Assembly: GCF_963921235.1 (NCBI RefSeq)
Contig: NC_086108.1
Coordinates: forward strand, 19,406,001-19,470,000
Direction: 5' to 3'
Source: Mobula hypostoma
Taxonomy: Eukaryota
Length of the DNA stretch: 64,000 nt
This document shows positions 1 through 59,793 of the stretch, piece by piece. The position numbers and the translations under genes were made by a program. The notes beneath the pieces were generated by a model that had not been told where the DNA came from, did not search any database, and saw nothing but the letters and a program-made list of their open reading frames with translations. Each line of letters starts with the position of its first letter. The first letter of the stretch is position 1.

Positions 1-978
1 ACAGCATGTACCCAACAGTATTTATGTCTGGTAAATGGAATCTGAATTGTACTTTTTCTACTCACTTCTGTTACAAATAGGAGCAAAGACATGACTTCGG
101 ACCACAATTTTCAGTTTGGTGATAAAATGATAGATATTGCAAGTTGTTCATTAGAAAACACACAATTTCCTTTCAGACAGTCCTTTAGCTTAACAATGAA
201 TTAGATTCACTGCTGTATTCTGAGTTCTCAGATGGTAATAAGACTAATGTCAGAACTACATCACAATGGGGTAGGTCACATTGTAGGCAGTGCACTCCTT
301 GTGCAGGGCAGCAGTGGCCTCACAATACACAGTCTTATGGTTCTTCAAGCCATGACAAAACCCTATCTTCAGTCAAGGGAGAGAAACTCCTGGGAGCCAC
401 CAGCAATGTCACATTCTCAGGATGGCTTCACCTCCTCTGACTATTTACTGTGTCCCATACCCATTCCAGAAGAAAATCCAGACTGCATCAAGAATTCAAC
501 AGCATTTTTGATTAAAAGTAACCCTCATTTTGACAAAGTTGTAAGATCGAAGACTGTTAATACTAACCAACAGTATTTAGTTAGTAGTATGCCAATTGCT
601 TTGTTTTTACTGATTAAAAGCAAGCAGTATAAAGTCCTGTAGCAACAAAACTAGTCTTGGTTCAGTGAGAGGACGAGGAGTCAGTTTAACACTGTAACAG
701 TACTGAATTGCTGAGAAACATTCTGGAGAAATTGTTGGTAATTGAACCCTTCAGACTCATCGCTCATCTCTTTACTTCAGCATTCCCACAGAAGTCAAAA
801 ACATGCCTACTGCTGGATTTAAATGTAGCATCATTCAAGCTTTTGGCATCAGCCTCCTCTTTAGCCTCTGAAATTCAGAAGCAGCAATTCAGATTATCCT
901 CGTTTTAAAGTCAAGTTATCTGCACACCAACATCTGCCTAAACACTGTGGCAGAGTTGTGAAAGAGGACATTTATATA

Positions 979-1281
979 GGCATCTGTTAGTCTCGTGAGA
1001 CCATGGATTTGCGCCTTGGAAGGTTTCCAGGGCGCAGGCCTGGGCAAGGTTGTATGGAAGACCAGCAGTTACCCACGCTGCAAGTCTCCCCTCTCCACGC
1101 CACCGATGTTGTCCAAGGGAAGGGCATTAGGACCCATACAACTTGGCACCAGTGTCATTGCAGAGCAATGTGTGGTTAAGTGCCTTGCTCAAGGACCCAA
1201 CACGATACCTCAGCCAAGGCTCAAACTAGCGACCTTCAGATCACTAGATGAATGCCTTAACCACTTGGCCACACGCCAACA
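979..1281 (-). mobile_element. tRNA-derived CORE-type SINE with RTE-like tail (copy 1)
   Basis: Reverse-complement match to 62357-62664. A-box TGGCCAAGTGG, CORE-like GTCCTTGAGCAAGGCACTTAA. Imperfect flanking repeat aagagga(c/g)att. Confidence 0.8.
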
Positions 1282-1701
1282 CTAAGAGGAGATTACAGTC
1301 TGGTTAGGGGTAGAATCAACCACTGAAGCTGGCAGAGCATCACATCCCACCCAATGGCAGTGACTCTTGCCTGCTATCATATACTAAAAAAAAAGCAATA
1401 ATACAAGTCTTTTAGAAGTTGGAAGAATATCTGCTAAATAGCAGTTCCAAAATTCTTAATATAATAATAATCCTGTGTATGCAACAGTGAGACACATTTC
1501 ACAAGAACAAAAAGAAAATTAAACTCAGGCAATTCCATGAAAGGAGAAAATAAAACATTCCAAGAAACAAATACAGGAGTGGCTTGAATTCTCCGCAATA
1601 ATCTCCACAATCAAAAACACATTATGGAAAAAGACACTTCGTCAAAATGTTGAAGGACAAAATGTGTTCGAATTGATGCAAAATTACAGAGAATCAGGAT
1701 C

Positions 1702-2526
1702 CGGTGGATTTCAGTTAACTAGGGCAACCAATTATTTGGGACAACTTAAAAGGACAAAAACTAAATAAAGAAAACAGCTGGCATTCCCTCGTTTATTTGG
1801 GATACTATGCCCCTTAATAGGGACAGGAGGCTGCAGCCTAACAGTTTCTAACTTGTGTCAATAATGTGACCTTGCGTAGCCATTAGACACTACACTGTGC
1901 TCAGAGTGAACTTTTTAAATACCATTAGTTGCATGTGTTTCTGTTCAAAAAAGTGATTTTTGCCACTGATAGTTAGCGAGAAATAAACTGGAAGACAATT
2001 TTAAACTGCTTTGCTCACTGCGGTTTCAAGCATTCTGGCTTGGAGACGTCAGAAACAGCCATAAGTGAAAGCGAATCGATTTCACGACCTCAACAAATTA
2101 GGAACCACAATGAATTTGAAGGTATGAACAATCATCATCTTCAGTGTTACAATGGAAATGAAAATTTGGAGGATGCAATCATCGAAAGCAATCTATGGAG
2201 GCAGACCATTATCTGTAGATGGTGTCTGCACTGATTTTGTTCATTTACAGTCTATCAAAAGAACACGGCAGCGTGCACTGAGTGATTCCTCCACCAGTAA
2301 CTATTGAGAACTATTATGCATTTTTAGTATCGCAGCAGTATTGATAGTTTTAACTTGTTCTGTACTTCATTTAAATCCATTATTTATTACTCAGTTAAAT
2401 CATAGCTTTTCTTTTTTTTAAATATATTTTTAACTATTTCCACGAAACTTTGGCTAATTGATGCAGTTGGTGAGTTAAGCCAAAATGTAGTGATCCGAAT
2501 GTGTCCCAATTAACCAGAAGCTACTG
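1702..2526 (+). mobile_element. Decayed Tigger/pogo-like DNA transposon derivative
   Basis: The right end ...tgtcccaattaaccagaagctactg|ta is an imperfect inverted match to the left end. Residual KTILNCFAHCGFK near 1992-2030 resembles the pogo/Tigger DDE C-terminal motif TIxNCFxxxGF. Confidence 0.65.
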
Positions 2527-2599
2527 TATTTGGAAAAAAGCATTATCGTTTATCCTCCATTACCAGTACTTGTTATCCTACCCTTAAATTTTGGTTTGC

Positions 2600-3100
2600 G
2601 TGTACCAGCCCAACCACTTATTCTGGCAGTTTACATTCTCACCATCTTCTGCATGAAAATGTTGCCCTTCTCACCCTAAATCTAAGTCCACAAGCTTAGG
2701 TTCCTCTACCTCGGGAAAAAGATTTGTTTCTGCCTCTCACAATTTTAAAGACTTCTATGAAGCCACCCCTCAGTCACCTACGTTACAAGGAATTAACACC
2801 TAGCCTGGCCAACCTCTCCCCATAATACCCTCATTCTTTCAGCACTCTTTCCAGTTTAGCCTAGTCTTTTCTCTGACAGGGTGACCAAAACTATAGATAG
2901 AACTCCAAGTACAGCCTCAACAACAACTTGTACACTACAACAAACATCTGATCCCCTATAGTCAATGCTCTGACTGATGCCGAAGGCCATTATCCTAAAC
3001 ACCTTTGGCATCACCTTGCCTACCTGTGGCACCATTTTCAACAAAATATGCAGTTGTATTCCAGTTCTTCTGTTCCATTACGCTGCCTGGTCCCTGATGA
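2600..3100 (-). mobile_element. Degraded CR1 LINE 3' fragment
   Basis: Similar in reverse orientation to the RT C-terminal region of the better-preserved CR1 copies (e.g. 49750-50250). Confidence 0.65.
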
Positions 3101-3112
3101 CACACACTATGA

Positions 3113-4625
3113 ACCCACAAAATGCTGGAGGAACTCAGCAGGCCAGGCAGCACCTGTGGAAGAGTACAGTCGATGTTGTTTCGGGCCAAGACCCCTCAGA
3201 AGGACTGAAGAAAAAAAAAAGATGAGGAGCAGATTTCAAAGGTAGGGGGAGGAAAGGGAGAAACACAAGGTGACAGGTGAAACCAGGAGGAGGAGGGGTG
3301 AAGTGAAGAGCTGGTATGTTGATTGGTGAAAGAATCAGGGCTGGAGAAGGGGAAAATCTAATAGGAGAGGATAAAAGGTCATGGAAGAATGAAAAGGGGC
3401 GAGGAGCAGCAAAGAAGGCAATGGGCAATGAGATAAGATGAGAGAGGGAAAAGGGGATGGGAAATGGTGAGGGTGGGGGGGGGTGGGGGTAGAATTGCCA
3501 GAAGTTTGAGAAATCAATATTCATGCCATCAGGTTGGAGGCTACGCAAATGGAACATAAGGAATTGTCCCTCCAACCTAAGTGTGGCCTCATATGGCCTC
3601 TTCTACTGTCATGATGAGGCCACACTCAGGTTGGAAGAGCAACATTCCCACTTTCCATTCCACTTCCAATATGTCAATATATGGCCTCCTCCACTGTCAT
3701 GATATTGACATATTGGAATGGGAATGGGAAGTGGAATTAAAATGGGAGGCCACGGAGAAATCCTGCTTTTTCTGGCAGATGGAGTGTAGGTGCTTGGTGA
3801 AGTGGTCTCCCAATCTACATCGGGTCTCACTGATATACAGGAGGGAACACTGGGAACACCAGTCACAGTTTATGACCCCAAAAGACTCACAGGTGAAGTG
3901 TCACCTCACCTGGAAGGACTGTTTAGGTCCCTGAATGGTAGTGGAGGAAGTGGTGTGGGCACTTGCTCCACTTTTGCAAGGATATGTGCAAGGAGGGAGA
4001 TCAGTGGGGAGGGACAAAAGGACATGGGTCAAGTAGGGAGTGATCCCTGTGTAAAGTAGAAAGTGGTGGGGGGGGATGGTGGTGGGGGGGCAGGAAAGAT
4101 CTGCTTGGTGGTGGGATCCGTTGGAGATGACAGAAGTTACGGAGAATTATGTGCTAGGCGTGGCTGGTGGGGTGCTAGATGAGGACAAGAGGAACCCTAT
4201 CCCCAGTAGGGTAGCGGGAGGATGGGGTGAGAGCAGACATACATAAAATGGAAGAGATGCGGTTGAGGACAGTGTTGATGGTGGAGGAAAGGAAGCCCCT
4301 TTCTTTGAAGAAGGAAGACATCTCCTTCATTCGAGAATGAAAAGCCTTATCCTGAGAGCAGATGCGGCGGAGACAGAGGAATTGAGATAAGGGGATGGCA
4401 TTTTTACAGGTAACAGGGTGGGAGGAGGTATAGTCCAGGTAACCGTGAGAGTCCGTGAGTTTATAATAGACATCAGCAGATAAGCTGTCTCCAGAGACAG
4501 AGACAGGGAGACCAAGAAAGTGGTGTTGGAAATGGATCAGGTAAATTTGAGGGCAGGCTGGAAGTAGAAGCCAAGTGGATGAAGTCGACGCACTCCACAT
4601 GGGTGTAGGAAGCAGCACCAATGCA
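3113..4625 (-). mobile_element. Penelope-like element (PLE) 3' fragment
   Basis: ORF 4175-4621 (VYYKLTDSHGYLDYTSSHP...IPLSQFLCLRRICS...FFKERGF) is typical of the PLE RT C-terminus. GIY-YIG-region remnants follow. The terminus at ~3113-3206 has a degenerate hammerhead-like motif. Confidence 0.85.
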
Positions 4626-5004
4626 GACGATGTACAATAAAATGTACACTATTTGACTTTCCAAAATACATCTGTACCAAAATCCTTTTGCCACTCTTCT
4701 GCTCATTTCCCTAAATGATCAAGATCCTCCAAGTAATATATGATAAATTTCTGTGCTAACAATTTAGTGATCAAGTCTTGTGCATTCACATCCATGATCT
4801 ATATAAATCACCAATACAAGGGTCCAAACACTGACTCCTGTGACACACCACTTGTTTCCAATTCCTTTCCAAGAAACAACCTGTAACCATCACCCTTTGC
4901 TTCCTCCCTCTGAGCTGATTTTAAATCCATCTAACCAAATCTCCCAAGATTCACTGGGACCCAATCTTCCAAACAAGCCCGCCATGCAGCAATCTGAAGG
5001 CCCT

Positions 5005-6005
5005 GGTCAACGACACCACTATTGTTGGTCAAATCAAAGGTGGTATAAAAACAACCTCTCACTCTGTATCAGCAAGACCAAGGAGATGACAATGACTTCA
5101 GGGGGAGGAGACCAGAGGTCCATGACCTTCTACATATCAGGAGATCTGAGATGGAGAAGGTCAGCAACTTTAAATTCCTCAGTGTTATCAATTCAGAGGA
5201 CCTGCCCTGGTCCCAGCACACAAGTGCAACTACAAAGACAGTGCCTCTACTTTCTTAGGCTGTGAAGATTCTGCATACAACCTAAGACTTTGACAAACTT
5301 ATATAGATGTGTGGTGGAGAGTATATTGACTATTGCATGATACAGAAACATCAATGCCCTTGTACAGAAAAGCCGACAAAAAGTAGTGGATATGACCCAC
5401 TACTTTACATCACACGTAAAGCCCTCCCCACCGCTGAACACATCTACATGGAGCAATGCCCCAGGAAAGCAGCATCCATCATCGAAGACCCCCACCATCC
5501 AGGCCATGTTCACTTCTCAAAGTTGCTGGTGAATGCAGCTGGCCAGGCAGCATCTCTAGGAAGAGGTATAGTCGACGATTCAGGTCGAGACCCTTCTCAG
5601 CCTGAAACGTCGACTGTACCTCTTCCTAGAGATGCTGCCTGGCCTGCTGCGTTCACCAGCAACTTTGATGTCTGTTGCTTGAATTTCCAGCATCTGCAGA
5701 ATTCCTGTTGTTTGCGTTATACCCACAATCAATGGACTCACTTTCAAGGACTCTTCATCTCATGTTCTCAAAATTATTGCTTATATATTTATTATTTCTT
5801 TTTCTTTCTTTTTGTATTTGCAGTTTGTTGGTGTTTTTTTTAAGTTTTTTTTGCACACTGGTTGTTTGCCCGTCCTGTTGGTCGTGGTCTTTCACTGATT
5901 CTGTTGCATTTCTTTCATTTACTATGATGGCGCACAAGAGAAAGAATCTCAGGGTTGTACATGGTGACATACGTACTTTAATAATATATTTACTTTGAAC
6001 TTTGA
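5005..6005 (+). mobile_element. Rex1/Babar-type LINE 3' fragment interrupted by a fold-back PLE insertion
   Basis: SKTKEM..., FKFL-like and KAASIIEDPHHPGH motifs; ...tttactttgaactttga tail; collinear with 56683-57190. Confidence 0.75.
5517..5718. mobile_element. Fold-back mini-PLE (inverted pLTR termini)
   Basis: Left arm aagttgctggtgaatgcagctggccaggcagcatctctaggaagagg... is the reverse complement of the right arm ...cctcttcctagagatgctgcctggcctgctgcgttcaccagcaactt. The right arm runs on to the terminal gaattcctgttgtttgcgtt. Confidence 0.85.
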
Positions 6006-6201
6006 CGATCCAGTGCCCTACCCTCATCTACCCTTTTAATTTCTTCAAAGAACTAAAAGATTCGTCAAGCACAACTTTCCATATCAAGCAATTCCAGTTA
6101 AGAAATTTACAGCCTTACTAAAGAAAATTTTATTTTGGCCTAAACACGAACACATTGCATCACAGCACATCTATGGGGGAAAAAAAAAACATGGACTAAT
6201 A

Positions 6202-6975
6202 CAGGGGTCCCCAAGCTTCTTTGCACCGCGGACTGGTTTAATATTGACAATATTCTTGCGGACCGGCTGACCAAGGGGTGGTACTTAAGTTGGGTTAAAC
6301 TCACCTCAACGTGTCTTTTACAGTTAGGGTTGCCAACTTTCTCACTCCCAAATAAGGGACAAAAGTAGCAGTCAAATCCCAGGACACTTTACCCCAGGGA
6401 AGACTACCATGACCATGAAGCCTTCCGCGGGCACCTGTGTGTGCATGTGTGATGTGCAGATGTGCCGATTTTTTCCCCCCACAAATTGGTTTTGCCTTCA
6501 TCTTCCCAACTACACTGTACATACATTATTTCTACTTTATATTGGATGTGTATTTATCATATCCTTCCTGCTTTTACTATATGTTAGTGTTATTTATTTT
6601 CGGTGTTATGTGTTATTTGGTATGATTTGTTAGGTTATTTTTTGGGTCTGGGAACGCTCAAAAATTTTTCCTATATAAATTAATGGTAATTGCTTCTTCG
6701 CTTGACGCCATTTCGGCACGGAAGGTTTCATAGGAACGCTCTACCTTAGTGGGGGAAATACGAGACAAGGGCTGTCCCCTATGGGATAAACCAATTTAGC
6801 CCAATATACGGGATGTCCCGGCAAATACAAGACAGTTGGCAACCCTATGTTCAAGTTCAACAGTGCGTGACAGGGAAAGAGGAAAGATGCAGCTGACTCA
6901 TATCGTTTCCTCACAGCCCGGTAGCACGCTTTGCGGCCCGGTACTGGTCCGCGGACCAGTGGCTGGGGACCGCTG
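6202..6975. mobile_element. Non-autonomous hAT (Charlie-like) element, composite
   Basis: TIRs caggggtcccca / tggggaccgctg. Perfect 8-bp TSD gactaata at 6194-6201 and 6976-6983. Confidence 0.9.
6325..6847. mobile_element. Inner TIR element (TAGGGTTGCCA-type, hAT-like) containing a Tigger end fragment
   Basis: Perfect 14-bp TIR tagggttgccaact / agttggcaacccta. Internal ~6510-6755 is the reverse complement of the end of the Tigger-like element at 45508-47404. Confidence 0.8.
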
Positions 6976-7829
6976 GACTAATAGGATCATTCTGAGACCT
7001 GGCCCCGCCATGCACAGATCAAAATGGGGAACAAAATATATTTATTCACAACTGTGGCTCATCTCAACACATGTAAAATTCTAAAGCCAAAGCAATGTGC
7101 ACAATGATAGGTTACCAACATCAAGTAATTTGAATCCATCATAAGGAGCAACCTCATCCTTTACAAAAACACATTTAGCCCAAAAGTACCAAGATGGAAT
7201 AAATACGACACAGCAATTACTTTGCCCCATTGGAGAATCTGCTGAGCTTACTTAATGTTTGAATGGATTCATTTAGAAATCTACAGCTTGAAAGTATCAT
7301 TATATTGATTAGATTGTTAAGAATGTGCTGGATGATTAATATTTGTAATGAGGAATAAAGACAGCTGAATATAAACATGCAATTAAAAACATATTCTGAT
7401 AGGTTAATAAATATTAAACTACATTAGACAATGAAATTAAAACAGAAAAGCCAGAAAAGCAAAGAAATTTTTTCTGAACATTTGTAGAAGTCGCAGTGTT
7501 ATCCCCTACTTTGTAAAGCTCAAGACAGCTGCAATCAATTAACAGTGACCGTGTTCATAAAGCAGTCCGCTTGGGCAATGAGTAACAATTGCTGCATTCC
7601 ACTACCATTTATTGAATACTGTAGAGCCCATCTCAACTTCCTCATACATTTCACTTCCAGCACTACTTGTGACTGCTGTCAACACCATCAGGAGGGAACA
7701 CTCCAAAGAAACAACTTACAATCAGCTTTCACAACATGACCTCTCTGTGCATTCATTCAGAAGCTCTGTACACAAGTCAAGCTTTCATGAAATACAGTTA
7801 CAAAAGGATTTGAATTCAGATACAAATCT

Positions 7830-9770
7830 GACAAATTGTTCTCGTGCTGAAGGATCTCCATGTCACAATCTGCAATCAGCCCCAATCAACCTCATTGTTG
7901 CTGGTGACTTCAATCATAACTTTAAAATAGTCCTACCAGAGTTCTACTGGCATGTCAGCTTCACAACCAGAGGAGAGAGTAGACATAGACTATACTGACA
8001 ATCATGCAGCCTACAAGGTTTGACGAATCAGACCACAGATCCATTTTGTTAACCCCTGCATATAGACCACTGATTAAGTGAGTTAGGCAAGTTCACAGGG
8101 AGATCAGAACCTGGCCACAAGGTGCCACCTCAGCACTGCGGGACTGATTTGAAAGTAGGGACCGGTGAATATTCAGGGAGGGGCCACCTATGAACATCAT
8201 ATCAACATTGATAATTACAAGGCATCAGTGAATGAGGAAAATGCACCAAGGACATTATTGTGATCAGCCGGCCAGTGGTGTAGTGGTATCCACGCTGAAC
8301 TTCAAGATGAGTAGTTCCAGGTTGACATCCGGCTGGTTCCTTACATGCTTTTCATCCACACTGAATTGAATGTCGAGCCAGCAGCCCGGCCTCATAAAAA
8401 AAAACGACAAATGCTAAAGAAATGCAAGGTTGCTGCCTGATGCGCCACAAGGCAGGAAGATGATCAACCTTACTGTGATAAAATACCAGACTGCCACAGC
8501 AACCAGAAACAGGACCTAAACACTAAGTGCTTAAGCTGTTGGTAACGGATCTTATTAAATCTCACTTTCCAGCCAAATTCTCAAACCAGCCCAATGATGA
8601 TGTCATTGCCTTGGCCCTCCCCTCCAACCAGTCCCACCTAGAAAACAATACCTCATAGACCAGCATGTAGTTTATCGATTTCAGCTTGGCATCTGATAGT
8701 GATCATCCTTCACAGGATACTGGGTAAACTGTCCTCATTGGGACTCAACACCCCTTTCTGTAACTGGATCTTGGACTTCTTGATGGAAAGACCTCAGTCA
8801 GTCAGAGTTGGTAGCTACATCCCAAGCTCCATCACACTAGGCACTGGTCCCCACTCCCCCCACGAAACGGTTATGTACTCAGCCTGCTGCTGACTCACGA
8901 CTGCACTGCCAGATCCAGCTCAAACCGCATCATCAAGTTTGCTGATGATACAACAAAGGTTGGCCTCAGCAACAATGATGAGTCAGGATACAAGGAGGAA
9001 GCAGAGAGGCTTATCAAATGGTGCGAAAGCAACAACCCAAGTCTCAATTCGGGCAACAGAGATGATTACAGACTTGAGAAAAGCACAGATCGACTACTGT
9101 CCATTGCACATCAACAGCTCAGCCATGGAGAGTGAAGAGCACTAAGTTCCTTGCTGTGCACGTAACAGACGATCTAATCTGGACCAACAACACCTCATCA
9201 GTCAAGGCGGCAAAGCAGCATCTACACTTTGAGAAGACTGAGACGTGCGAGGCTCCCTGTGCCATTCTAACAACTTTCTACAGGAGTAGATATTCGAATA
9301 TTCTATCTGGATGCATCATAGCATGGTGTGGAAGCTGCAAGGCATCAGACCACAAGATCTTACAGGCAAACACCACCAAGAGCACAACAGGGGGTCTCCC
9401 TCCTCCCCTTATTTGTGCATTTTACTAGGACAATTGTATAGCAAGGGCACAACGCACAATCCCACAATCTCTTTAACCCACTGACATCAGGAAGGAATTT
9501 CAGGAGCATCAGGACTAGGACTGCCCACCTTCGTAACAACTTCTTCCCTCAGGCTGAGACTTACAAATGAGGTCTCATCACAAGATCAGCAAGCTGTTAA
9601 CCTTTGCTGTGCACTTCACATACATTTTGAATTATATTTTCATGATGTACGTGTAGTAATTTTACATGCTGTGTGTGAATTATGCATTGTAGGTGCACTG
9701 TGGTCCACAGAAACTTTGTGTCATTTAGTTGTATATATGTACAGTCAGATAACATTAAACTTGAACTTGA
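7830..9770 (+). mobile_element. Degraded Rex1/Babar-type LINE (EN and RT remnants) with a nested tRNA SINE at ~8267-8468
   Basis: [33 protein letters not shown]-like and KFLAVHVTDDLIWT motifs; tail attaaacttgaacttga. Confidence 0.8.
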
Positions 9771-10767
9771 GATACTGCTAGAGCACATACTCAGAATATA
9801 TTAAGTGATTACAAATACTTTTCTGTTTCTGTGTTTGAAAACAGGGCAGTTAACTTGCACACAGCAGCGCCTCTCAGAAATCAGGTGAAGATATGATGCC
9901 CAGTTTTAGACTCCGTGTTCTCATTGGTTGACCAGCTCATTTGCACTTTAAGTCCAACACTTTCAAAAAATGGCCATGATCCAAGTGACAGTTACTGCAG
10001 CCACCCTCTCCTCTGTCTTTGACTGCACATTTCATAGAGCTGGCGGAGGCAAACGGTGATAGATTGTTCACTGGCATGTCCACCTCTCCCCAGCCTAAAC
10101 ATTACATTACCAAAGTCTCTGACGCCCACAAGGCAGACACTAGGACTGGAATGAGCTACTTCCCGTTTCCCATCTCAGTTATCAGGGATTCCAAAGGGAG
10201 CACATCAGGCCTCTACTTTCTCAGCTTCCTGTGATCACACAGTCATGAACTTTCCAAACACCATGCCAAAACAGACTAAAAAAAGTATCGTTCTCACTTT
10301 CTGGGCCCACAAGAATATGCAGAGTATTCCAAAAATAGCCCATTTTCACTTGGGAACAGGACTTGCTGCATGGGAAGTTATAATTACACAGACTATAACC
10401 ACTCAAGTTATGGTCTTTGTCAAAATCACATGGTTAACATTTTTTTTATATTAATTAAGCTCAGAAATGTAACCCTTCACATGCTGAACATTCCTCCATA
10501 TTTTACACTACCCTTAATTCAGAAGGGATTGGTGCACACATCCTTCTCCACAATCAGACAGATCTACATGAGGCGTTGCCTCAGGAGAGCAACATCTATC
10601 AAAGATCCCCATTATCTTGGCCAGCTACCATCAGGAAGGAAATGCAGAAGCCTGAAGTCCCCCACCACCAGGTCCAAGAACTGCCATTTCTCTTCAACCG
10701 TTCAGTTCTTGAACCACCCAGCACAACCCCAATCACTGCAGTATAGCAATACTATAACCACTGATTA

Positions 10768-11218
10768 TGGTATTCTGCAAATCTAATGCAGTGCCTTTTC
10801 ACTGGCGACACACAGAAACTGAACTCCTTTTGGACTCAGGCTGAACTGCAGAGGACAGGCAGAAGTTCTGGCCCCTACACATGTAGCACACCCTGGTGCT
10901 CATGAACCAGATCCCCCAACTGTAGGTAAATAGCCCCACTGCCTTGTGGGTAGCCTCAGGAGAGACGAAGGCAATGGGAGTAAACCCTGACAGCAAATCT
11001 GGAGTGGAACCCCTGAGGCGGCTGGACGTCATTGAACATCCTTCCTGCAGCTCCTGCAGCCAAGCTGGTGCCAAATGTATTGCTTTGTAAGCTTTCCTTT
11101 GGTGAGGCAGAGAGGGGGATCTTGATAACTGGGCATCTCAGGATCTCCATACCTTCCGCCCAGGCTTGTGTTGATCATCACCACCACCACCCACTGTCCT
11201 TCAAGACAGACGGATGGC
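10768..11218 (+). mobile_element. Short non-autonomous RTE-like retroelement inside a Rex-type tail
   Basis: Flanked by aaccactgatta / aatcactgatta (11/12). The 3' end ...cccaggcttgtg...gtccttcaagacagacggatggc resembles the tail of the CORE-type SINEs in this window. Confidence 0.6.
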
Positions 11219-11252
11219 AATCACTGATTACATCACACTACTATTAACTTTA

Positions 11253-11475
11253 ACAACAGGAATTCTGCAGATGCTGGAAATTCAAGCAACACACATCAAA
11301 GTTGCTGGTGAACGCAGCAGGCCAGGCAGCGTCTCTAGGAAGAGGTACAGTCGACGTTTCAGGCCGAGACCCTTCATCAAGTTCTGACAAAGGGTCTCAG
11401 CCTAAAACGTTGACTGTACCTCTTCCTAGAGATGCTGCCTGGCCTGCTGCATTCACCAGCAACTTTGATGTGTGT
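11253..11475. mobile_element. Fold-back mini-PLE with two degenerate hammerhead cores
   Basis: ~190-nt near-perfect palindrome centred near 11381. TSD tactattaacttta (11239-11252) / tactatgaacttta (11476-11489). Confidence 0.88.
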
Positions 11476-45737: not shown

Positions 45738-46074
45738 GCAACACACATCAAAGTTGCTGGTGAACGCAGCAAGCCAGGCAGCATCTCCAGGAAAAGGTAC
45801 AGTCAACATTTCAGGCCGAGAAAGTGGGAGAGGAAGGGGGAGATCCAAAATGATAGGAGAAGACAGGAGGGGGAGGGATGGAGCCAAGAGCTGCAAAATG
45901 ATAGGAAAAGTACCCCACTTTCAAATCTCTTACTAACTCTTCCTTCAGTTAGTCCTGACGAAGGGTCTTGGCCTGAAACGTCGACTGTACCTCTTCCTAG
46001 AGATGCTATCTGGCCTGCTGCAACTTTGATGTGTGTTGCTTGAATTGCCAGCATCTGCAGAATTCCTGTTGTTT
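45738..46074. mobile_element. Fold-back mini-PLE inserted in the Tigger element
   Basis: Perfect 16-bp flanking repeat gcctatataaagtaga (45722-45737, 46075-46090); inverted pLTR arms. Confidence 0.9.
45951..45986 (+). ncRNA. Minimal type I hammerhead ribozyme, intact core
   Basis: AGTC-CTGACGA-AGG gtcttgg CCT-GAAACGTC^GACT; predicted cleavage between 45982 and 45983. Confidence 0.8.
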
Positions 46075-47605: not shown

Positions 47606-50475
47606 GAGCATTGTAAGAAAGGTAGATGAACTCAGAGCATGGATTGATACCTGGAAATATGACGTTGTAGCTATTAGTGAAACGTGGTTGCAGGAGGGGT
47701 GTGATTGGCAACTAAATATTCCAGGATCTCGTTGCTTCAGCTGTGATAGAATAGGAGGGGCAAGAGGGGGAAGTGTTGCATTGCTTGACAGAGAAAATAT
47801 ACCAGCAGTCCTCTGGCAGGGTAGATTAGTGAACTCATCCAGGGAGGCTATTTGAGTGGAATTGAGGAATAGGAAAGGTGTTGTGACGCTTATAGGGGTG
47901 TATTATAGACCACCTAATGGGGACCGTGAACCAGAGGAGCAAATTTGTAAGGAGATAGCAGATATTTGTAGTAAGCACAAGGTTGTGATTGTGGGAGATT
48001 TTAATTTTCCACACTTTAATAGACTGGGAAGCCCATTCTGTTAAAGGGCTGGATGGTTTGGAGTTTGTCAAATATGTGCAAGATAGTTTTTTGCAGCAAT
48101 ACATAGAGGTACCAACTAGAGAAGAGGCAGTGTTGGATCTCCTGTTAGGGAATGAGATAGGTCAGGTGACGGAGGTTTGCGTTGGGGAGCACTTCGGGTC
48201 CAGTGATCACAATGCTATTAGTTTCAATATAATTATGGAGAAGGAAAGGACTGGACCCAGGGTTGAGATTTTTGATTGGAGAAAGGCTAACTTTGAGGAG
48301 ATGCGAAAGGATTTAGAAGGAGTGGATTGGGACAATTTGTTTTTATGGGAAGGATGTAATAGAGAAATGGAGGTCATTTAAAGGTGAAATTTTGAGGGTA
48401 CAGGATCTTTATGTTCCTGTTAGGTTGAAAGGAAAAGTTAAAAGTTTGAGAGAGCCATGGTTTTCAAGGGATATAGGAAACTTAGTTGGGAAAAAGAGAG
48501 GGATTTACAATAAATATAGGCAGCTTGGAGTTAATGAGGTGCTCGAGGAATATAAAGAATGTAAAAAGAATCTTAAGAAAGAAATTAGAAAAGCTAAAAA
48601 AAGATATGAGGCAGCTTTAGCAGGTAAGGTGAAAATAAATCCAAAGGGTTTCTACAGCGATATAAATAGCAAAAGGATAGTGAGGAATAAAATTGGTCCC
48701 TTAGAGAATCAGAGTGGACTGTTATGTGCGGAGCCAAAAGAGATGGGGGAGATTTTGAACAATTTCTTTTCTTCGATATTCACTAAGGAGAAAGATATTG
48801 AATTGTGCAAGGTAAAGGAAATAAGAAGGGTAGTTATGGAAAGTATGACGATCAAAGAAGAGGAAGTACTGGCACTTTTAAGGAATATAAAAGTGGATAA
48901 GTCTCCGGGTCCGGACAATATATTCCCTCGGACCTACAGGGAAGTTAGTGTGGAAATAGCAGGGGCTCTGACAGAAAGATTTCAAATGTCATTAGAAACG
49001 GGGATGGTGCCAGAGGATTGGCATATTGCTCATGTGGTTCCACTGTTTAAAAAGGGTTCTAAGAGTAAACCTAGCAATTATCGGCCTGTGAGTTTGATGT
49101 CAGTGGTGGGTAAATTGATGGAAGGTATTCTTAGAGATGGTATATATAATTATCTGGATAGACAAGGTCTGATTAGGAACAGTCAACATGGATTTGTGCG
49201 TAGAAGGTCATGTTTGACAAATCTTATTGAATTTTTTGATGAGGTTATTAGGAAGGTTGATGAGGGTAAAGCGGTGGATGTTGTCTATATGGACTTCAGT
49301 AAAGCCTTTGACAAGGTTCCACATGGAAGGTTAGTTAGGAAGGTTCAATCGTTACACATTAATATCGAAGTAGTAAAATGGATTCAGCAGTGGCTGGATG
49401 GGAGACGCCAGAGAGTAGTGGTGGATAACAGTGTGTCAGATTGGAGGACGGTGTGTAGCGGTGTGCCTCAGGGATCTGTACTGGGTCCAATGTTGTTTGT
49501 CATATATATTAATGATCTGGATGGTGGGGTGGTAAATTGGATTAGTAAGTATGCAGATGATACTAAGATAGGTGGAGTTATGGATAATGAAGGAGGTTTT
49601 CAAAGCTTGCAGAGAGATTTAGGCCAGTTAGAAGAGTGGGCTGAAAGATGGCAGATGGAGTTTAATGCTGATAAATATGAGGTGCTACATTTTGGTAGGA
49701 CTAATCAAAATAGGACATACATAGTAAATGGTAGGGCATTGAAGAATGAAATAGAACAGAGGGATCTAGGAATAATGGTGCATAGTTCCCTGAAGGTGGA
49801 ATCTCATGTGGATAGGGTGGTGAAGAAAGCTTTTGGTATGCTGGCCTTGATAAATCAGAGCATTGAGTATAGGAGTTGGGATGTAATGATGAAATTGTAC
49901 AAGGCATTGGTAAGGCCAAATTTGGAGTATTGTGTACAGTTGTGGTCAGGGAATTATAGGAAAGATGTCGATAAAACTGAGAGAGTACAGAGGAGGTTTA
50001 CTAAAATGTTGCCTGGGGTTCATCTCCTAAGTTACAGAGAAAGATTGAACAAGTTAGGTCTTTATTCTTTGGAGCGTAGAAGGTTGAGAGGGGACTTGAT
50101 ACAGGTATTTAAAATTATGAGGGGGATTGATAGAGTTGACGTGGATAGGCTTTTTCCATTGAGAGTGGGGGAGATTCAAACAAGAGGACATGAGTTGAGA
50201 GTTAAAGGACAAACATTTAGGGGTAACATGAGGGGGAACTTCTTTACTCAGGGAGTGGTAGTTGTGTGGAACGAGCTTCCAGCAGAAGCGGTTGAGGCAG
50301 GTTCGATGTTGTCGTTTAAAGTTAAATTGGACAGATATATGGACAGGAAAGGAATGGAGGGTTATGGACTGAGTGCAGGTCGGTGGGACTAGGTGAAAGT
50401 AGGAGTTCGGCACGGACTGGAAGGGCCGAGATGGCCTGTTTCCGTGCTGCAATTGTTATATGGTTATATGGTTAT
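47606..50475 (+). mobile_element. CR1 LINE ORF2 (EN with lesions plus a 666-aa open RT region at 48392-50392)
   Basis: AISETW, GDFN, SDHN, KSPGPD, QHGF, DFSKAFDKVPH, GVPQGSVLGP and YADDTK motifs; (ttatatgg)n tail; 5-bp TSD AAGAG. Confidence 0.95.
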
Positions 50476-51982
50476 AAGAGTCTTACCATTAATACTATAT
50501 TCTGCCATCATACCTGACCTACCAAAATGAACCACTTCACACTTATCTGGGTTGAACTCCATCTGTCACTTCTCAGCCCAGTTTTGCATCCTATCAATGA
50601 CCCACTCTAACCTCTGACAGCCCTCCACACTATCCACAACACCTCCAATCTTTGAGTCATCAGTAAACTTACTAACCCATCCCTCCACTTCCTCATCCAG
50701 GTCATTTATAAAAATCACAAATAGTAAGAGTCCCAGAACAGATCCCTGAGGCACCCCACTGGTGACCGACCTCCATGCAGAATACGATCCATCTACAACC
50801 ACTCTTTGCCTTCTGTGGGCAAGCCAGAAGCAATGTCCCCTTGGATCCCATGCCTCCTTACTTTCTCAATAAGCCTTGCATGGGGTACCTTATCAAATGC
50901 CTTGCTAAAATCCATATACACTACATCTACTTCATCAATGTGTTCAGTCACATCCTCAAAAAGTCCAATCGGGCTCGTAAGGCACAACCTGCCCTTGACA
51001 AAGCCATGCTGACTACCCCTAATCATATTTTACCTCTCCAAATATTCATAAACCCTGCCTCTCAGGATTTTCTCCATCAACTTACCAACCACTGAGGTAA
51101 GACTCACTGGTCTGTAATTTCCTGGGCTATCTCTACTCCCTTTCTTGAATGAAGGAACAACATTCACAACCCCCCAATCCTCCAGAACCTCTGATGCAAA
51201 GATCACAGCCAGAGGCTCAGCAATCTCTTCTCTCGCCTCCCACAGTTGGCTGAGGTACATCTCATCCAGTCCTGGCAACTTATCCAACTTGATGCTTTCC
51301 AAAAGCTCCAGTACATCCTCTTTCTTAATATCTACATGCTCAAGCTTTTTAGTCAGCTGAAAGTCATCACTGCAATCACCAAGATCCTTTTCCATAGTGA
51401 ATACTGAAGTAAAGTATTCATTAAGTACCTCTGCTATTTTCTCCGGTTCCATACACATTTTCCCACTGTCACACTTGTTAGGTCCTATTCTTTCACGTCT
51501 TATCCTCTTACTCTTCAAATACCTGTAGAATGCCTTGGGGTTTTCCTTAATCCTGCCCGCCAAGGCCTTCTCATGGCCCCTTCTGGCTCTCCCAATTTCC
51601 TTCTTAAGCTCCTTCCTATTAGCCTTATAATCTTCCAGATCTCTAACATTACCTAGCTCTCTGAACCTTTTGTAAGCTTTTCTTTTCTTCTTGACTAGAT
51701 TTATTACAGCCTTTGTACACCACGGTTCCTGTACCCTACCATAACTTCTGTCTCATTGGAACGCACCTATGCAGAACTCCACACAAATATCCCCTAAATA
51801 TTTGCCACATTTCTTTCGTACTTTGTCCTGAGAACATCTGTTTCCAATTTAAGCCTCCAATTTCTTGCCGGATAGCCTCATAATTCCCCTTACTCCAATT
51901 AAACGCTTTTCTGATTTGTCTGTTCCTATCTTTCTCCAATGCTATTGTAAAGGAGACAGAAGTATGATCACTATCTCCAAAA

Positions 51983-53745
51983 CTTTAGATTAGATTCAAC
52001 TTTATTGCCATTGTGCCGAGTACAGATACAAAGCCAATGAAATGCAGTTAGCATCTCACCAGAAATGCAAAGAGTATTATTTACAAAATAAGTGTGAATA
52101 AAAGGTAAGTGCTACAGCACACAAATATAAAAGTACTGAGACAGTACAATATGGGTGCAGTATTACTTAGCGCTGTGATGTGAGGTTCAGCAGGGTCACA
52201 GCCTCAGGGAAGCTCTTCCTGTGCCTACTGGTGCGGGAGCGGAGGCCCCTGTAGCGCCTACCCCATGGGAGAAAAGTAAAAAGTCCATGGTTCGGGTGAG
52301 ATGCATCCTTGATTGGTTTTTCACTCAGGATGGACGGCCCAGTCCTTTTTTTGCCCTGTTTAGAATAGTAGTGTTTTTTTTTCTTTTTTTTTAAATATAT
52401 AAAAATTTCTAATACTCCTTGCTTTCTTCATAAATCGATAAGAGAAGAATGAATTACACTCTTTTTTTTCCTCTGTATTATACATTCTATATTATATTTA
52501 TGCTTTGTAGATGAACACTGTGTGATTCTGATATTGTTTATTTTACCTTCTGTATGTACTGTTACTGACATATATACCAGAGATATTCTCCTCTGGTTTG
52601 TATACACTTTTTTTAAAAATCAATAAAAAGATTGAAAAAAGAAAGAGAAATATCCTTGATAATGCTTTTCGCCCTGCCAAGGCAGCGTTTATGGTAGATG
52701 TTCTCAATGGTGGGCAATTGGGTGCCGATAATCCACTGGGCAGTTTTCACGACACACTGGAGTGCTTTGCAGTCCAATACGGGACAATTGCCATACCACA
52801 CTGAGATGCAGTTGGTGAGTCGGCTCTGAATGGTACAGTAGAAGAAGTCCGTCAGTATCCTGGGACAGAGGTGAGCTTTCTTGATACTCCGCAGGAAATA
52901 AAGGCGCTGTTGTGCCTTTTTGATCAGGATGGAGGAGTTCAGGGACTAGGTGAGATCCTCGGAAATGTGGACACCAAGGAATTTGAAGCTTGATACACGC
53001 TCCACCACAGCTCCATTGATATAGATGGGGACGTGAGCGTGGCTCCTAGCATGCCAGAAGTCCACAATAATCTCCTTGGTCTTCTGGGTGTTAAGGGCCA
53101 GGTTGTTGTCGGCATACCACGCGGCCAGGTGCTGGACCTCATCCCTGTAGGCCATCTCGTCATCCCCTCTGATCAGGACAAACACCGTAGTGTCGTCTGT
53201 GAACTTGATTATGGAGTTAGAACCATGTACAGGAATGCAGTCATAGGTGAAAAGGAATTACAGAAGAGGACTCAGCACACAGCCTTGAGGCATGCTGGTG
53301 TTCAGGGTGAGAGTGGAGGAGGACAGGATGTCTAATTTAACTGATTGGGGTCTGTTAGTCAGAAAGTCCAAGGTCCAATTGCAGAGGGATGAGCTGATAC
53401 CAAGCTGGCAAAGTTTGGCTATCAGCTTGAAGGGGATCACAGTATTGATTGCCGAACTAAAGTCAATGAACAGCATTCTGATGTAAGAGTTGGGACTGTC
53501 CAGGTGGGTCAGGGCAGAGTGAAGTGTCGTGGAGATGGCGTCCTCTGTTGACCTGTTGGTGCGAAAGGCAAATTGATGGGGGTCCAGGGTAGTGGGCAGA
53601 CAGGGTTTCAGATGTGATAGAACCAGTCTCTCAAAGCACTTTGCAATGATGGGGGTGAGTGCAACTGAGCGGGAGTCATTCAGGCCCGTGGCAGTGGAAT
53701 GCTTTGGCACTGGCATGATGGTGGCGATCTTGAAGCTCTCCCGTT
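51983..53745 (-). mobile_element. Rex1/Babar-type LINE RT and 3' fragment nested in CR1
   Basis: [52 protein letters not shown] and NTQKTKEIIVDF motifs. Confidence 0.9.
52314..52651 (+). mobile_element. Short L1-like 3' end insertion
   Basis: AATAAA followed by an A-rich tail; 9-bp TSD atccttgat (52305-52313, 52652-52660). Confidence 0.75.
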
Positions 53746-56682
53746 GAGAGATCTGACACCTGACCAGGTTCATTTCACAATACCAAATCAAGTACAGCTT
53801 CTCCTCTTGTAGGCTTATGGACACATTGTGTCAAGAAACCTTCCTGAACACACCTAACAAACTCCACCCCATCTAAACTCCTCGCTCTTGGGAGATGCCA
53901 ATTGATATTTCCGAAATTAAAATCTCCCATGATAACTCTGTTATTATTACACTTTTCCAGGATCTGTTTCCCTATCTGCTCCTCGATATCCCTGTTACTA
54001 TTGGGCGGCCTGTAAAAAACACCCAGTAAAGTTATTGGCCCCTTCCTGTTCCTCACCTCCACCCACAGAGACTCCATAGACAATCCCACCATGACATCCA
54101 CCTTTTCTGCAGCCTTGACACTATCTCTGATCAACAGTGCCACACCCCCACTTCTTTTGCCTCCCTCCCTGTCCTTTCTGAAACATCTAAAACCCGGCAC
54201 TTGAAGTAACCATTCCTGTCCCTGAGCCATCCAAGTCTCTGTAATGGCCACTACATCCTATCTCCAAGTACTGATCCACGCTCTAAGCTCATCCGCTTTG
54301 TTCACAACACTCCTTGCATTAAAATAGACACATCTCAAACCTTCAGTCTGAGCACATCCCTTCTCTATCACCTGCCTATCCTCCCTCTTGCACTGTCTAC
54401 AAGCTTTCTCTATTTGGGAGCCAACCTCCTCTTCCCCAGTCTCTTCAGTTCAGTTCCCACCTCCCAACAATTCTAGTTTAAACTCTCCCCAGTAGCCTTA
54501 GTAACCTCCCCAGCAGGATATTGGTCCCCCTGGGATTCAAGTGCAACCCGTCCTTTTTGTACAGGTCACACCTGCCCCAAAAGAGGTCCCAATGATCCAG
54601 AATCTGAATCCCTGCCCCCGCTCCAATCCCTCAGCCACGCATTTATCCTCCACCTCATTCTATTCCTATACTCACTGTCACGTGACACAGGCAGTAATCC
54701 CAAGATTACTACCTTTGCAGTCCTGCCTCTCAACTTCCTTCCGAACTCCCTGTAGTCTTTTTTCAGGACCTCTTCCCTCTTCCTACTTACGTCATTGGTA
54801 CAAATATGTACCACGATCTCTGGTTGTTCTCCCTCCCACTGCAGGAGCGATCCAAAACATCCCGGACCCTGTCACCTGGGAGGCAAACTACCATCCGAGT
54901 TTCTTTCTTGCATCTACAGAATCGTCCGTCTGACCCCCTAACTATAGAGTCCCCTATCACTACTGCCTTCCTCTTCCCTTCTCTACCCTTCTGAGCTACA
55001 GGGCCAGACTCTGTGCCAGAGGCACGGCCACTGCCGCTTTCCCCAGGTAGGCTGTTTTCCCCAACGGTACTCAAACAGGAGTACTTATTGTCAAAGGGGT
55101 ACAGCCACAGGGGTACTCTCTCGTACCTGACTCTTTCCCTTCCCCCTCCTGACTGTGACCCACCTGTCTGTGTCTCGTGGCCCTGGTGTGACCACCTGCC
55201 TATAACTCCTCTCTGTCACCTCCTCACTTTCCCTGACCAGGCGAAGGTCATCGAGCTGCATCTCCAGTTTCCTAACTCGGTCCCTCAGGAGCTGCAGCTC
55301 GACACACCTGGTGCAGATATGGCCGTCTGGGAGGGTGGGAGACTCCAGGACCCCCCACATCTGACACTGAGCACAGAAAACTGGCCTCACACTCATACTA
55401 CCTCCTTTCGGCAATTAACACAGTTCAACCTACCTCACCTCGTCCCATTACCGCCCAAGCCTGTTGAGCCAAAGCCCTACCACTCTGCCACCTCTCACTC
55501 CGCTGCCCGCTCCGACGCTGCCTGCTGGATATGGCGGTCTTCTTTTTAAACCTTTCACACGCTACAGGCTGATGTCATGCGCCTGCGCAGTCTCGCCTCT
55601 TTTACCCCCTGTAGTAAAAAACTCCCTTCACTCCGAAGAACATCAGCTGTTCACTCACAGCCTTCTTGCTCCAAATCAAAAACTGGTAAAGATTCCTTGC
55701 CTTTTTAAACCTTTTGCACACTACTGGCTGACGTCACGCGCCTGCACAGTCTCGTCTCTGTTTTACACGAGTAGCAAAAAACTCTCTTCGCTCCAAAAAA
55801 TCAGCTGTTCACTCGCAGCCTTCTTCTTCCGATTGTATGCAGAAAAAGGCCCATGATATCACAGGCTTGATTGCCAGGTTTAAAAGTTGCTTGAAGCTAG
55901 AAAGCATACTATAATCATTTTACAAGTTCTACTGTTCCAGACAATAGCAAAAAAAAAAATCAGAAATATAATGCAGTTAATTATTGAGCAACACTCCGGG
56001 TTTCCACATGGAAGCTGTAACATAGCCAAATTGCATGCAGAAAACTTCTAAAGAAACGAGTGGAAATGCCAAAATACAATTCTAAAAGCAAATATTCAAA
56101 CAAAGTGACTGGCATTATTCTCAAACAAAAAATAAACAAATTTCTTAGAAGTTTGCAACATATGAGCTCTTGGCTTCCAATGTTTGCATTGTTAGCCAAA
56201 GCTTATATACAATCAAATTAATTTTCTTAATAACTCTAAAGAGTTGCCACAAAAATCTTTTTTTAAGGCACCAGTCTTAACTTTCTCGTGTGCAATAGGC
56301 CGTAACAGAGTAGCAGTGATCTGTATAATGTGATCTGTTATCATGACCAGCTGTCCAAACTTCACAATACTTCACGATTAGACAATGTTAAATTTATTCA
56401 ATCAAAATACAATAAGCTTGATTAATACAAACTGAGACACTCACAAGGACTTCCTAGGAATAGTACAATAAACATTTTTTAGATGAAGCTTCAATGATCA
56501 GTAAATTTATCAACATACTCTGTTAAAACAGATTAAAATAAAAGTTGCTTCTAAAAATACTCCATATTATTAAAACTTATTTTGCTGAGTAATTTTGAAC
56601 TGATATTTCAGTGCTGCTTCAAGAAATACCATTATTAAAAGTTATCTTTTTCCAGGATTCTCGTACTCAACTTCTCTTGATA

Positions 56683-57190
56683 CATGCATGCCCTCTCCAC
56701 CATTGAGTACATCTACACAAAATGTAATCACAGGAAAGCAGCATCCATCATCAGAGACCCCCAGCACCCAGGACATGCTCTCTTCTTGCTGCTACCATCA
56801 GGAAGGTGGAAGGAAGCCTCAGGACTCCCACCACCAGGTTCAAGAACAATTATTACCCCTCAACCATCAGGCTTTTCAACTGAAGGGGCTATCTTCACTC
56901 AACTTCATTTGCCCCATCATTGAAACGTGCCACAACCTGTGGACTTAATTTCAAAGACTCTTCACCTCATGTTCTTGATATTCATTGCTTGTTTATTTAT
57001 TTGTTTGTTTATTATTATTTCTTTCTTTTTGTATTTGCAGTTTCTGTCCTTTGCAGACTGGTTGAACACCCAAGCTGGTATGGTCTTTCATTGATTTGTT
57101 ATGGTTATTATTCTATCATGGATTTATTCAGTACACCCTCAAGAAAAGGGTTGAACATGGTGACATATACTTCAAATAAATTTACTTTGA
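56683..57190 (+). mobile_element. Rex1/Babar-type 3' fragment
   Basis: RKAASIIRDPQHPGHALFLLLPSGR motif; aataaatttactttga tail. Confidence 0.8.
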
Positions 57191-58114
57191 GCTATTGTGA
57201 AAATCTCTTAGTTTTCCTGCTCAGTTTCAACATCTACGTGTATCTGGCTTTCAAAGACTGAGATTCTCAAATGTGCTGCATTCCTCAAGTTCAATTTCAC
57301 AGTTATGGAATAGTGTACAGAAGACGACAGTTCATTTTTTTAGATCTGGTGAAAAAGGGCATTACTCTGGTGTGGTTGAAGGAGGAACTGATGTGTGGAA
57401 ATACGAACACCAGTGAATGGACTGAGGACAGTGAAGAAGAGAGATAAAAAGGGAACAAAATGATCTTGGGAGGCTGTGAAGATGTTGGATGTGATTTAAA
57501 AGATGGCAATAGGTGGGATGAAGGAATGCTAGTACTTGAATAGCAGGAACTAGTAATCACTGTTCATTGTGAGAAGTGATAGAGTATTAACGTCAAATAC
57601 AATCGCTTCTCACTTAGACTTAACTGTATGATTTAACAATAACCAATTTACCAAATGCACAGTTCCCATAATCAATTATTTTCTGAAATAACACATGGTT
57701 AGAATTAATCATAATTAAAAAGTTGTCATTTTCTTTCCAGTTTATACATAACCTGATCGATTTCATCACAATGTTGAACTTCAGTCATTGGCATAGTTGT
57801 TCTTATAGATTTCATGTCATTTCAATTCAAAATATAAACGATATTCTTACATTAAAGTGAGATTACGTTTTACATTCTATGCCCATTTGCCCTTTGATAC
57901 ATCTTTATTGTTAACATACAAAATGTGGCCTTACACAACTGAATATTCTAAGATAATTAAGCAGCCCAGATCTCCTTGCTCACCAGAACTTTCAAGATCT
58001 TTTCACCAAGTGTCTATGTCCATCCATACAGCCACAAACAGCAGGTCCTCTTTATAAACTAAAATACCTGAAACAGATAATACCTTCCCTTAAATTCCAT
58101 TGAGTGATCCACTA

Positions 58115-58870
58115 CAGAACATAGAAATCTACAGCACATTACAGGCCCTTCAGCCCACAATGTTGTGTCGACCATGAATTACCTACTGAGAATTATCCTA
58201 CTGCATAGCCCTCTATTTTTCTAAGTTCCATGTATCTATCTAAGAGGCTCTTAAAGGACCCTTTTGTATCCCCCTCCAGCAGTGCATTCCATACACCCAC
58301 CACTCCGTGAAAAATTTACCTCTGACATCCCCCCACCCATACCTACTTCCAAGTACCTTAAAATTATGCCCCCTCATATTAGCCATTTCAGCCCTGGAAA
58401 AAAGCCTCTGGCTAGCCACACAATCAATGGATCTCATCATCTTATACACCTCTATCAGGTCAACTCTCATCTTCCTTCGATCCAAGGAGAAAAGACCATG
58501 TTCACTCAACCTATTCTCATAAGGCATGCTCTCCAATCCAGGCAACATCCTTGTAAATCTCCTCTGCACTCTCTCTACAGTATTCACATCCTTTCTGTAG
58601 CGAGGTGAACAGAACTGAGCACAGTATTACAAGTGGGATCTGACCAAGGTCTTACATTACATTAACATGTAATCTTACATTACAGGCAACATTACCTCAC
58701 AGCTCTGGAACACAATCCCATGGTTGATGAAGGCCAACACACTATACGCTTTCTTTACAAGACTGTCCACCTGCGCAGCAGCTTTGAGTGTCCTATGGAC
58801 ATGGACCCCAAGATCTACGTTGCCAAGAATTAATATTATATTCTTTCAAATTTGACCTGTCAAACTAAAA
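58115..58870 (-). mobile_element. CR1 3' fragment
   Basis: ERVQRRFTRMLPGLE...GLFSLDRRKMRVDLIEVYKMM (ORF 58240-58587). Confidence 0.85.
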
Positions 58871-59703
58871 TATTTCAGAACCAGTTCAGAATTACGTTAA
58901 AATATTAACCAAATTACATTTTAAAAAATGGACTCTTCCATCAACTAACTTCATTCCTCTAACATTAACCATACTTCAAACAACAAGTAAACTGAAAATG
59001 ATCACCACCCCAATTTCACATTTTCAGCACAAACTGCGCAGGCATAAGACAGATCAAATTAAAAATTGTGCAGGGGAAAAAGAGAAAGGAATCTTGGCCT
59101 GAGGTTGAAAAGATCTCTTTCAATTCGCTACCATTTTCACATTCCATGACAGTCAGACGGAATGAAATCAGCGAACAACAAGAAATAGAAGACTCATTAA
59201 AAAAGAACTATGATTTTGTCCCTACTGAAATAATTCCAGTTTCGGCTTGGGAACCTTAGTGCAAACCTACCAATTTTCATTTTCTATTGCTTGCTTTTCC
59301 AGAGCAATGACAAGATACAAAACAAAACGTTAATCACTGTGATGCAAATGGAGTACTGAGAAACAGCAATTAAAGTGTGATGAAACATTGCAAGCACTCA
59401 ACAAACTGAAGGAAAACTGTGAAACAGCAAGGTGGCAAAAAACAGAAGAATCGAGTCCTGACAGCAGTAAATAACTCCAATGGATAGCAGTGACATGGAG
59501 AAATTAAACAAAATATGACTAAACTTCAACAAGGAACAAAACCAGAAGGAAAACAGTGAGGAAACAGACATTGCAAAGAATACACAGTTAACCTCTGCAG
59601 TTTTGTGACGATACTCGTCATTTTTGTCAGATTTTTAAGCGTTCTCGTCCCACTTCAGGTTTAAGTGGACTTAAACTGGTACTTCATCCCATGGGAATGT
59701 TTC

Positions 59704-59713
59704 AAAAGGATAC
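59704..59713 (-). promoter_or_regulatory. U12-type (minor spliceosome) GT-AG 5' splice site
   Basis: The intron starts GTATCCTTTT, an exact match to the U12 donor consensus RTATCCTTT. It splits the conserved His codon in phase 1. Confidence 0.9.
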
Positions 59714-59793
59714 GTCCTTGCTCAATGAAAGTAATTGCTGTTCTCAGGTTTTGAGCCATACGCAGCTTTACCATTATTGTGGGGAGACGTCTC
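59714..59793 (-). CDS. IMP3: Internal coding exon of IMP3 (U3 small nucleolar RNP protein, S4-like RNA-binding domain)
   Basis: Minus strand reads ...ctcttttctgcag|G AGA CGT CTC CCC ACA ATA ATG GTA AAG CTG CGT ATG GCT CAA AAC CTG AGA ACA GCA ATT ACT TTC ATT GAG CAA GGA C|gtatcctttt = (R)[26 protein letters not shown](H). This matches the IMP3 segment [28 protein letters not shown] as I recall it. Clean AG acceptor with a pyrimidine tract; 80 nt long. Confidence 0.93.

Follow-up and report, generated by a model that had tools for sequence, protein, structure and literature searches.

A spliced IMP3 gene in the ray Mobula hypostoma with a U12-type intron that appears to exceed 59.7 kb

The IMP3 exon and its splice sites

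The stretch of Mobula hypostoma DNA analyzed here (the window; 64,000 nucleotides (nt), positions 19,406,001 to 19,470,000 of contig NC_086108.1, assembly GCF_963921235.1) carries on its minus strand an 80-nt exon of IMP3, the gene for a U3 small nucleolar ribonucleoprotein (snoRNP) protein of the uS4 family. In the likely reading, this exon (59793-59714) belongs to the interior of an IMP3 gene that is single, spliced and of ancestral type and comes from a myliobatiform ray; the intron after it would be an old U12-type intron in phase 1, probably GT-AG, that grew beyond 59.7 kb as long and short interspersed nuclear elements (LINEs and SINEs) and long terminal repeat (LTR) elements came to fill this 60%-repeat genome.

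The exon has the borders ttttctgcag|G and GGA C|GTATCCTTTTGA, and its product, with split codons at both ends, matches residues 109-134 of human IMP3 (E 7.7e-7). Both the location and the ending in C|GTATCCTTT agree with an earlier note made from the letters of this DNA. The exon peptide is identical at 26/26 residues to the proteins P0007, P0081 and P0006; taken together with its flanking peptides it agrees with Mobula hypostoma P0007 and Hypanus/Hemitrygon P0081 and differs by at least one residue from Pristis, Narcine, Leucoraja and sharks, which points to a myliobatiform ray. Orthology to IMP3 was assigned from the sequence match plus a reading frame that is continuous across the junctions, with junction-flanking peptides as in P0007. 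A retrogene or processed copy was rejected, as the exon is flanked by splice sites and its neighbour exons are missing from the adjacent DNA.

The consensus of U12-type 5' splice sites is RTATCCTTT. The donor at 59713 (GTATCCTTTT; GTATCCTTT over 59705..59713, minus strand) is a perfect site of this type, lying in phase 1 and splitting a His codon. Among the 3836 minus-strand GT dinucleotides of the window it is the sole one followed by ATCCTT, and it fits the U1 consensus at 4/9 positions. Examples of U12-type 5' sites are given in file 1 of PMC6717393. Within 400 nt no convincing strong cryptic U2 donor was detected, the best having 6/9 matches.

On its other side the exon is preceded by a U2-type acceptor with a short pyrimidine tract and CAG (59794..59812, minus strand). 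The final 8 nt of this upstream intron (TTCTGCAG, 59794-59801) are identical to the final 8 nt of the upstream exon, and because of this shared sequence the genome can be read in frame as FCR-RRLP and the junction may be misplaced by aligners. The protein model P0015 has the same FCR read-in as the window sequence. A longer exon that would include the in-frame FCR just upstream was rejected, since FCR is intron sequence, a copy of the 8 nt with which the upstream exon ends.

Splicing in assembled RNA contigs

Of 11 runs listed, 8 of them RNA by guess, four were compared over 58700-60560 of the window and used here: X1 and X2 (organism A, study P1), X6 (organism B, study P2) and X9 (organism C). 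The first three are presumed RNA runs, their type being guessed, and were read as assembled contigs, in which splicing intermediates are not visible; all contig results refer to the matches listed. In each of these three runs one contig (616 nt at depth 155 in X1, 762 nt at depth 193 in X2 and 413 nt at depth 407 in X6) aligned to 59710-59801 with one other letter and then left the window sequence with loose ends on both sides. The translated loose ends read HLCEKVSASS, which is the upstream IMP3 exon, and IRIGPEVVTDP, which is the downstream exon, as in P0007. Where the contigs reach past the exon borders, they do so over 8 nt that the end of the upstream exon shares with the end of the intron and over 3/4 nt that the donor shares with the first letters of the next exon. 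The cut at 59714|59713 is accordingly an inferred one, and a His at the junction position in 61/80 homologues agrees with it.

Mature RNA thus shows the donor in use and the exon joined directly to the IMP3 exon that follows it. Since contigs from three runs and two studies join the exon to its expected neighbours on both sides, it is spliced and no orphan; the intron-containing, spliced IMP3 proposed in the earlier note, for which RNA evidence at the 59714 junction had been sought and an orphan duplicate named as the contrary outcome, is supported in this respect, as is the U12-type donor, with its unique motif and its use in RNA. Contigs of intron sequence were patchy and had depths of 2-5, and the parts of 58700-60560 that RNA contigs leave uncovered were not counted as evidence. 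An intronic read-through isoform is not claimed from these low-depth contigs: none of them spans the donor, and in X1 they flank the exon on either side.

The X9 run contributed a single 1712-nt contig over 58829-60499 that departs from the window at 71 letters and has another 38 letters in gaps. Exon depth equaled flank depth in this contig, which disfavours a second close copy or a retrocopy in organism C.

Search for further IMP3 exons and extent of the introns

When 80 IMP3 proteins were compared with the 64-kb window by tblastn, the exon at 59793-59714 was the only IMP3 exon found; the next-best match (E 6e-5, plus strand) involved a carp model, in its read-through tail. A six-frame ungapped scan of the window, for which the ray protein P0007 was divided into 15-residue pieces, scored 67-72 at this exon and at most 37 elsewhere along P0007. 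In the same scan the next exon was not detected in the window (best 25, as against 80 for itself and 22-32 in 20 shuffles), nor was the last exon (best 26, as against 171 for itself and 21-34 in shuffles). A 20-mer of the next exon taken from the RNA contigs had no match on the plus or the minus strand of the window with as many as 3 mismatches allowed, and neither tblastn nor the six-frame scan found the upstream IMP3 exon in 59794-64000. On the present assembly, the downstream intron (1..59713, minus strand) is therefore at least 59,713 nt long and the upstream intron (3' part at 59794..64000, minus strand) longer than 4.2 kb. The absence of both neighbouring exons, as stated in the earlier note, was borne out by these searches. 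Its view that the intron exceeds 59.7 kb stands insofar as no next exon lies in the window, and is conditional on an assembly that was checked to about 0.9 kb from the donor. Similarly, its statement that no branch point with an acceptor occurs in unique sequence is upheld, while in the whole window the motif is present: one exact TCCTTAAC was found on the minus strand near 25353, in repeat-masked sequence and not before IMP3 coding sequence.

Repeats were masked by self-BLAST and with retroelement proteins derived from the window, which covered 22,743/59,713 nt of the intron (38%, a lower bound). No host-gene domain was found by Pfam in 131 unmasked frames of at least 66 codons (of 459 at 40 codons or more), a search that short exons of nested genes could escape. 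Three unmasked frames with sub-threshold Pfam matches (ALKBH8_N, GDSL/OSK and gag-asp protease) are compatible with retroelements and were not taken as host genes. Where DNA is transcribed, an excess of T over A and of G over C is to be expected on the sense strand. In the 36,957 unmasked nt the minus strand showed such a skew (T>A 0.058, G>C 0.063), which was present in 8/10 six-kb bins, and T exceeded A in 20/26 two-kb bins.

Several points weigh against this interpretation. The 3' end, the branch point and the real length of the minor intron fall outside the window, and assembly continuity was checked only over 58829-60499, in another organism (X9). That the junction falls at base 59713 is deduced from a single mismatch close to where the alignment ends, together with the His of the homologues; moreover, X1, X2 and X6 are RNA runs by guess only, and contigs cannot reveal splicing intermediates. 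The strand skew is reversed in two of the ten six-kb bins (42001-54000), and replication could also cause such a skew. Finally, at 38%, a minimum estimate, the repeat content measured here falls short of the genome average of 61-66%, so that growth driven by transposable elements is not demonstrated for this intron; the earlier proposal of growth by their accumulation is plausible with at least 38% repeat, but an excess over the genome average was not seen.

Alternative explanations

An assembly artefact, in which a misjoin or an inserted block has set the real next exon apart from this one and makes a much shorter intron look long, is unlikely. The window is rich in repeats and independent continuity reaches only to 58829, 0.9 kb into the intron, but the window is without any N, the same strand skew extends through most of 1-59700 and the upstream intron, the 131 unmasked frames held no exon of another gene, and long introns are typical of elasmobranchs.

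It is also improbable that the intron is removed stepwise, with nested U2 introns or recursive sites shortening it before the U12 ends are joined. Nested arrangements of U2 and U12 introns are known, which counts in favour of this explanation, as do the 119 GTRAG and 21 acceptor-like motifs on the sense strand of the intron and the occurrence of GT[AG]AGT 36 times in sense versus 18 times in antisense orientation, an excess that strand skew may partly explain. However, ratchet-like YAG|GTRAG sites were not enriched (3 in sense orientation, all in repeats, versus 5 in antisense), and neither AG|GTRAG (9 versus 12) nor the acceptor-like motifs (21 versus 22) favoured the sense strand. Among the matches listed, no joint was found inside 58700-60560, the only part compared.

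A third explanation, that the window holds a recently duplicated orphan exon while the spliced RNA is made by a compact gene elsewhere that contains the identical exon, is very unlikely. Identical copies are indistinguishable in RNA contigs and no neighbouring IMP3 exon lies in the window. On the other hand, in the related organism of X9 (about 4-6% diverged) the exon and both flanks share a single contig, the matches listed include no other contig that covers the exon, and low-depth contigs identical to both flanking introns are present in X1. A hybrid or converted intron, with a U12-like donor now spliced by the major spliceosome, is compatible with a branch point that lies outside the window, but is hardly credible given that the donor fits the U1 consensus at only 4/9 positions and that the ATCCT signature has been kept across sharks and ray-finned fishes.

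Size compared with known minor introns

The length of the intron, to which the earlier note had drawn attention, is no surprise in the light of the catalogued minor introns. In the whole human sheet of supplementary file 8 of PMC6717393, 10/770 minor introns are longer than 59.7 kb, namely those of FHIT (522,707), DIAPH2 (100,276), SLC9A9 (94,503), EIF4G3 (86,961), STXBP5L (86,662), KIAA1328 (73,635), AL807742.1 (73,037), UBE2H (71,531), AC120036.1 (68,221) and RALGAPA2 (60,680), and the mouse data of the same file include 80,016 for Diaph2. Because human and mouse minor introns of similar or greater size are catalogued, the IMP3 intron is within the known range, in its upper tail, and by the human length distribution it is in the top 1-2%. 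It resembles the long human and mouse U12 introns in having a minor-class donor, tens of kb between the U12 ends and flanking major introns, but differs from them in gene and lineage; its full length may surpass most of them, and human IMP3 is intronless.

According to passages of two papers, mean U12 intron length correlates with genome size (r 0.87; PMC7367187) and U12 intron length with major-intron length (PMC10639083). Passages on elasmobranchs describe whale-shark introns as long through CR1-like LINEs (bioRxiv 10.1101/443036) and batoid genomes as 2.2-4.0 gigabases in size with 61-66% repeat (bioRxiv 10.64898/2026.10.27.761883). The ray intron is comparable to this LINE-driven expansion (long introns with CR1/L2-type LINEs, in genomes of 61-66% repeat), while minor and major introns are not separated in those passages.

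Age of the intron and IMP3 across vertebrates

Read-through of the exon end as EQG-R[IL][LF] was observed in 12/80 homologues, 11 of them with R-I, as expected from C|GT ATC YT. These were models from catshark, sturgeon, paddlefish, bichir, carp (2) and four other teleosts as well as two further records, and a Tetraodon fragment likewise ends in EQGRI. Conservation of the intron is thus followed at the protein level, through gene models that read through the donor, and by this measure the position and class of the U12-type donor are conserved in shark, sturgeon, paddlefish, bichir and teleosts. The frog and carp models P0044 and P0048 instead read EQG-PD-IR, which fits an acceptor shifted by a terminal CAG and therefore suggests the GT-AG subtype of minor intron, with the GT seen in the window and the AG indicated by these two models. 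Among the public IMP3 models P0001-P0054, those of fishes and a frog are often wrong at precisely this junction, and in total 19/80 models depart from EQ[GA]H[IVM]R there; such errors would be typical of gene predictors missing a U12 intron.

In PMC3548309, human IMP3 is listed as an orphan retrogene, without parent, and in the supplement it is paired with Danio rerio. Because of this listing and of the same donor signature in shark and ray-finned fishes, the spliced gene represents the ancestral state: judging from the protein models, an intron-containing IMP3 is common to other fishes and no peculiarity of the ray lineage. The retrogene system of PMC3548309 shares with the ray gene a parental IMP3 that is multi-exon in non-mammalian vertebrates, whereas its passages are silent on the U12 class of the parental intron and on the length in rays. 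Our search of the literature for IMP3 with a U12 or minor intron yielded nothing relevant, and online minor-intron databases, which this search did not cover, may list the fish intron; IMP3 was absent from the searched portions of the supplements of PMC11347168 and PMC10639083.

The first ~36 nt of the intron (59678..59713, minus strand) are probably conserved between ray and shark as well. The peptide read through after RIL is LKHSHGMKY in the ray and FEFSHGVKV in the catshark model P0001, with 4/9 residues identical in register (background 0.00075 per position, best of 12 comparisons). A hairpin in the first 50 intron nt was rejected, as no significant fold was obtained (z -0.75).

Two further groups of homologues were noted. 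P0054, a divergent IMP3 unlike the vertebrate sequences, also reads EQG-RIL, hinting at a U12 intron that may be older than jawed vertebrates. None of the bird proteins P0057, P0059-P0072, P0075, P0077 and P0080 has the read-through signature, which would be compatible with an intronless IMP3 in birds.

Proposed splicing of the intron

The intron is likely removed by ordinary exon-definition U12 splicing, without sign of recursive sites. In this scheme, the 80-nt exon would be defined by cross-exon bridging between U2AF bound at its upstream acceptor and U11 bound at its donor, the U12 branch point and acceptor outside the window would be defined together with the next short exon, and the U11/U12 di-snRNP (small nuclear ribonucleoprotein) would then pair both intron ends in one step. 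Passages in the literature report that U11-59K binds U2AF (PMC8034651), that exon definition operates in minor splicing (PMC3584512, PMC8329584), and that U12 introns have a conserved branch point ~11-13 nt before the 3' site without a distinct polypyrimidine tract (PMC3584512). Cryptic U2-like sites would be ignored for want of exon context and because another set of snRNPs recognizes them, and competing U12 signals are rare, with RTATCCT occurring 5 times in sense versus 9 times in antisense orientation and CCTTRAY 14 versus 13 times. PMC6717393 reports that minor introns which are retained tend to be short and those with alternative splicing tend to be long, so that low-level cryptic exons would be unsurprising here.

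How U12 sites pair across dozens of cryptic U2 sites had been raised as a question in the earlier note. It does not pose a new mechanistic problem, because human cells splice minor introns of 60-500 kb, which are easier test cases. The ray gene adds one long minor intron to the known set, which is of modest importance, and it would matter more only if the intron were extreme in length or removed in steps. In an unlikely reading, the intron would extend over hundreds of kb and be one of the longest minor introns known, the ribosome-biogenesis gene that holds it being small and well expressed. This giant U12 intron would then set IMP3 output in rays, either because nested major-spliceosome events remove it stepwise or because its conserved first 36 nt have a tuning effect; if this were true, the human loss by retroposition would be a natural test of minor-intron function. 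IMP3 also serves as an example of minor-intron loss by retrogene replacement, and because the human gene is a retrocopy, it is missed by minor-intron gene lists based on human and mouse. In addition, the U12 donor accounts for the IMP3 models that end in EQG-RIL, an annotation error that recurs.

Repeats and other features of the intron

Reverse transcriptase (RT) or endonuclease domains were confirmed in 5/20 frames tested. A LINE copy at 20922..22956 (plus strand), which by its resemblance we take to be of the CR1/L2 type, has RT in two frames with RVT_1 matches. Another copy at 47661..50392 (plus strand) contains an uninterrupted RT frame of 691 codons (48317-50392; RVT_1 E 2.8e-31) and is probably young. 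It is followed at 50476..55215 (minus strand) by a nested cluster of LINE fragments with domain matches to endonuclease, RT and an esterase-like piece of open reading frame 1 (ORF1). A degenerate, internally shortened LTR retroelement with an aspartyl-protease fragment was located at 37880..40593 (minus strand), bounded by 229-nt TG...CA LTRs that are 96% alike and by a 5-nt target-site duplication; it accounts for the peak in GC and CpG at 38-40.5 kb.

An Rfam gathering scan of the window returned 0 matches. An unmasked CpG-rich segment of 500 nt at 13001-13500 (observed/expected 0.69, GC 54%, no Pfam match) may represent a regulatory island or else a repeat with a single copy here. A family of ~130-nt repeats has copies at 5517-5719, 11245-11479, 25529-25700, 42322-42525 and 45704-46079, several of them as head-to-head palindromes 4-5 nt apart, and a separate 112-nt palindrome is present at 46421-46656.

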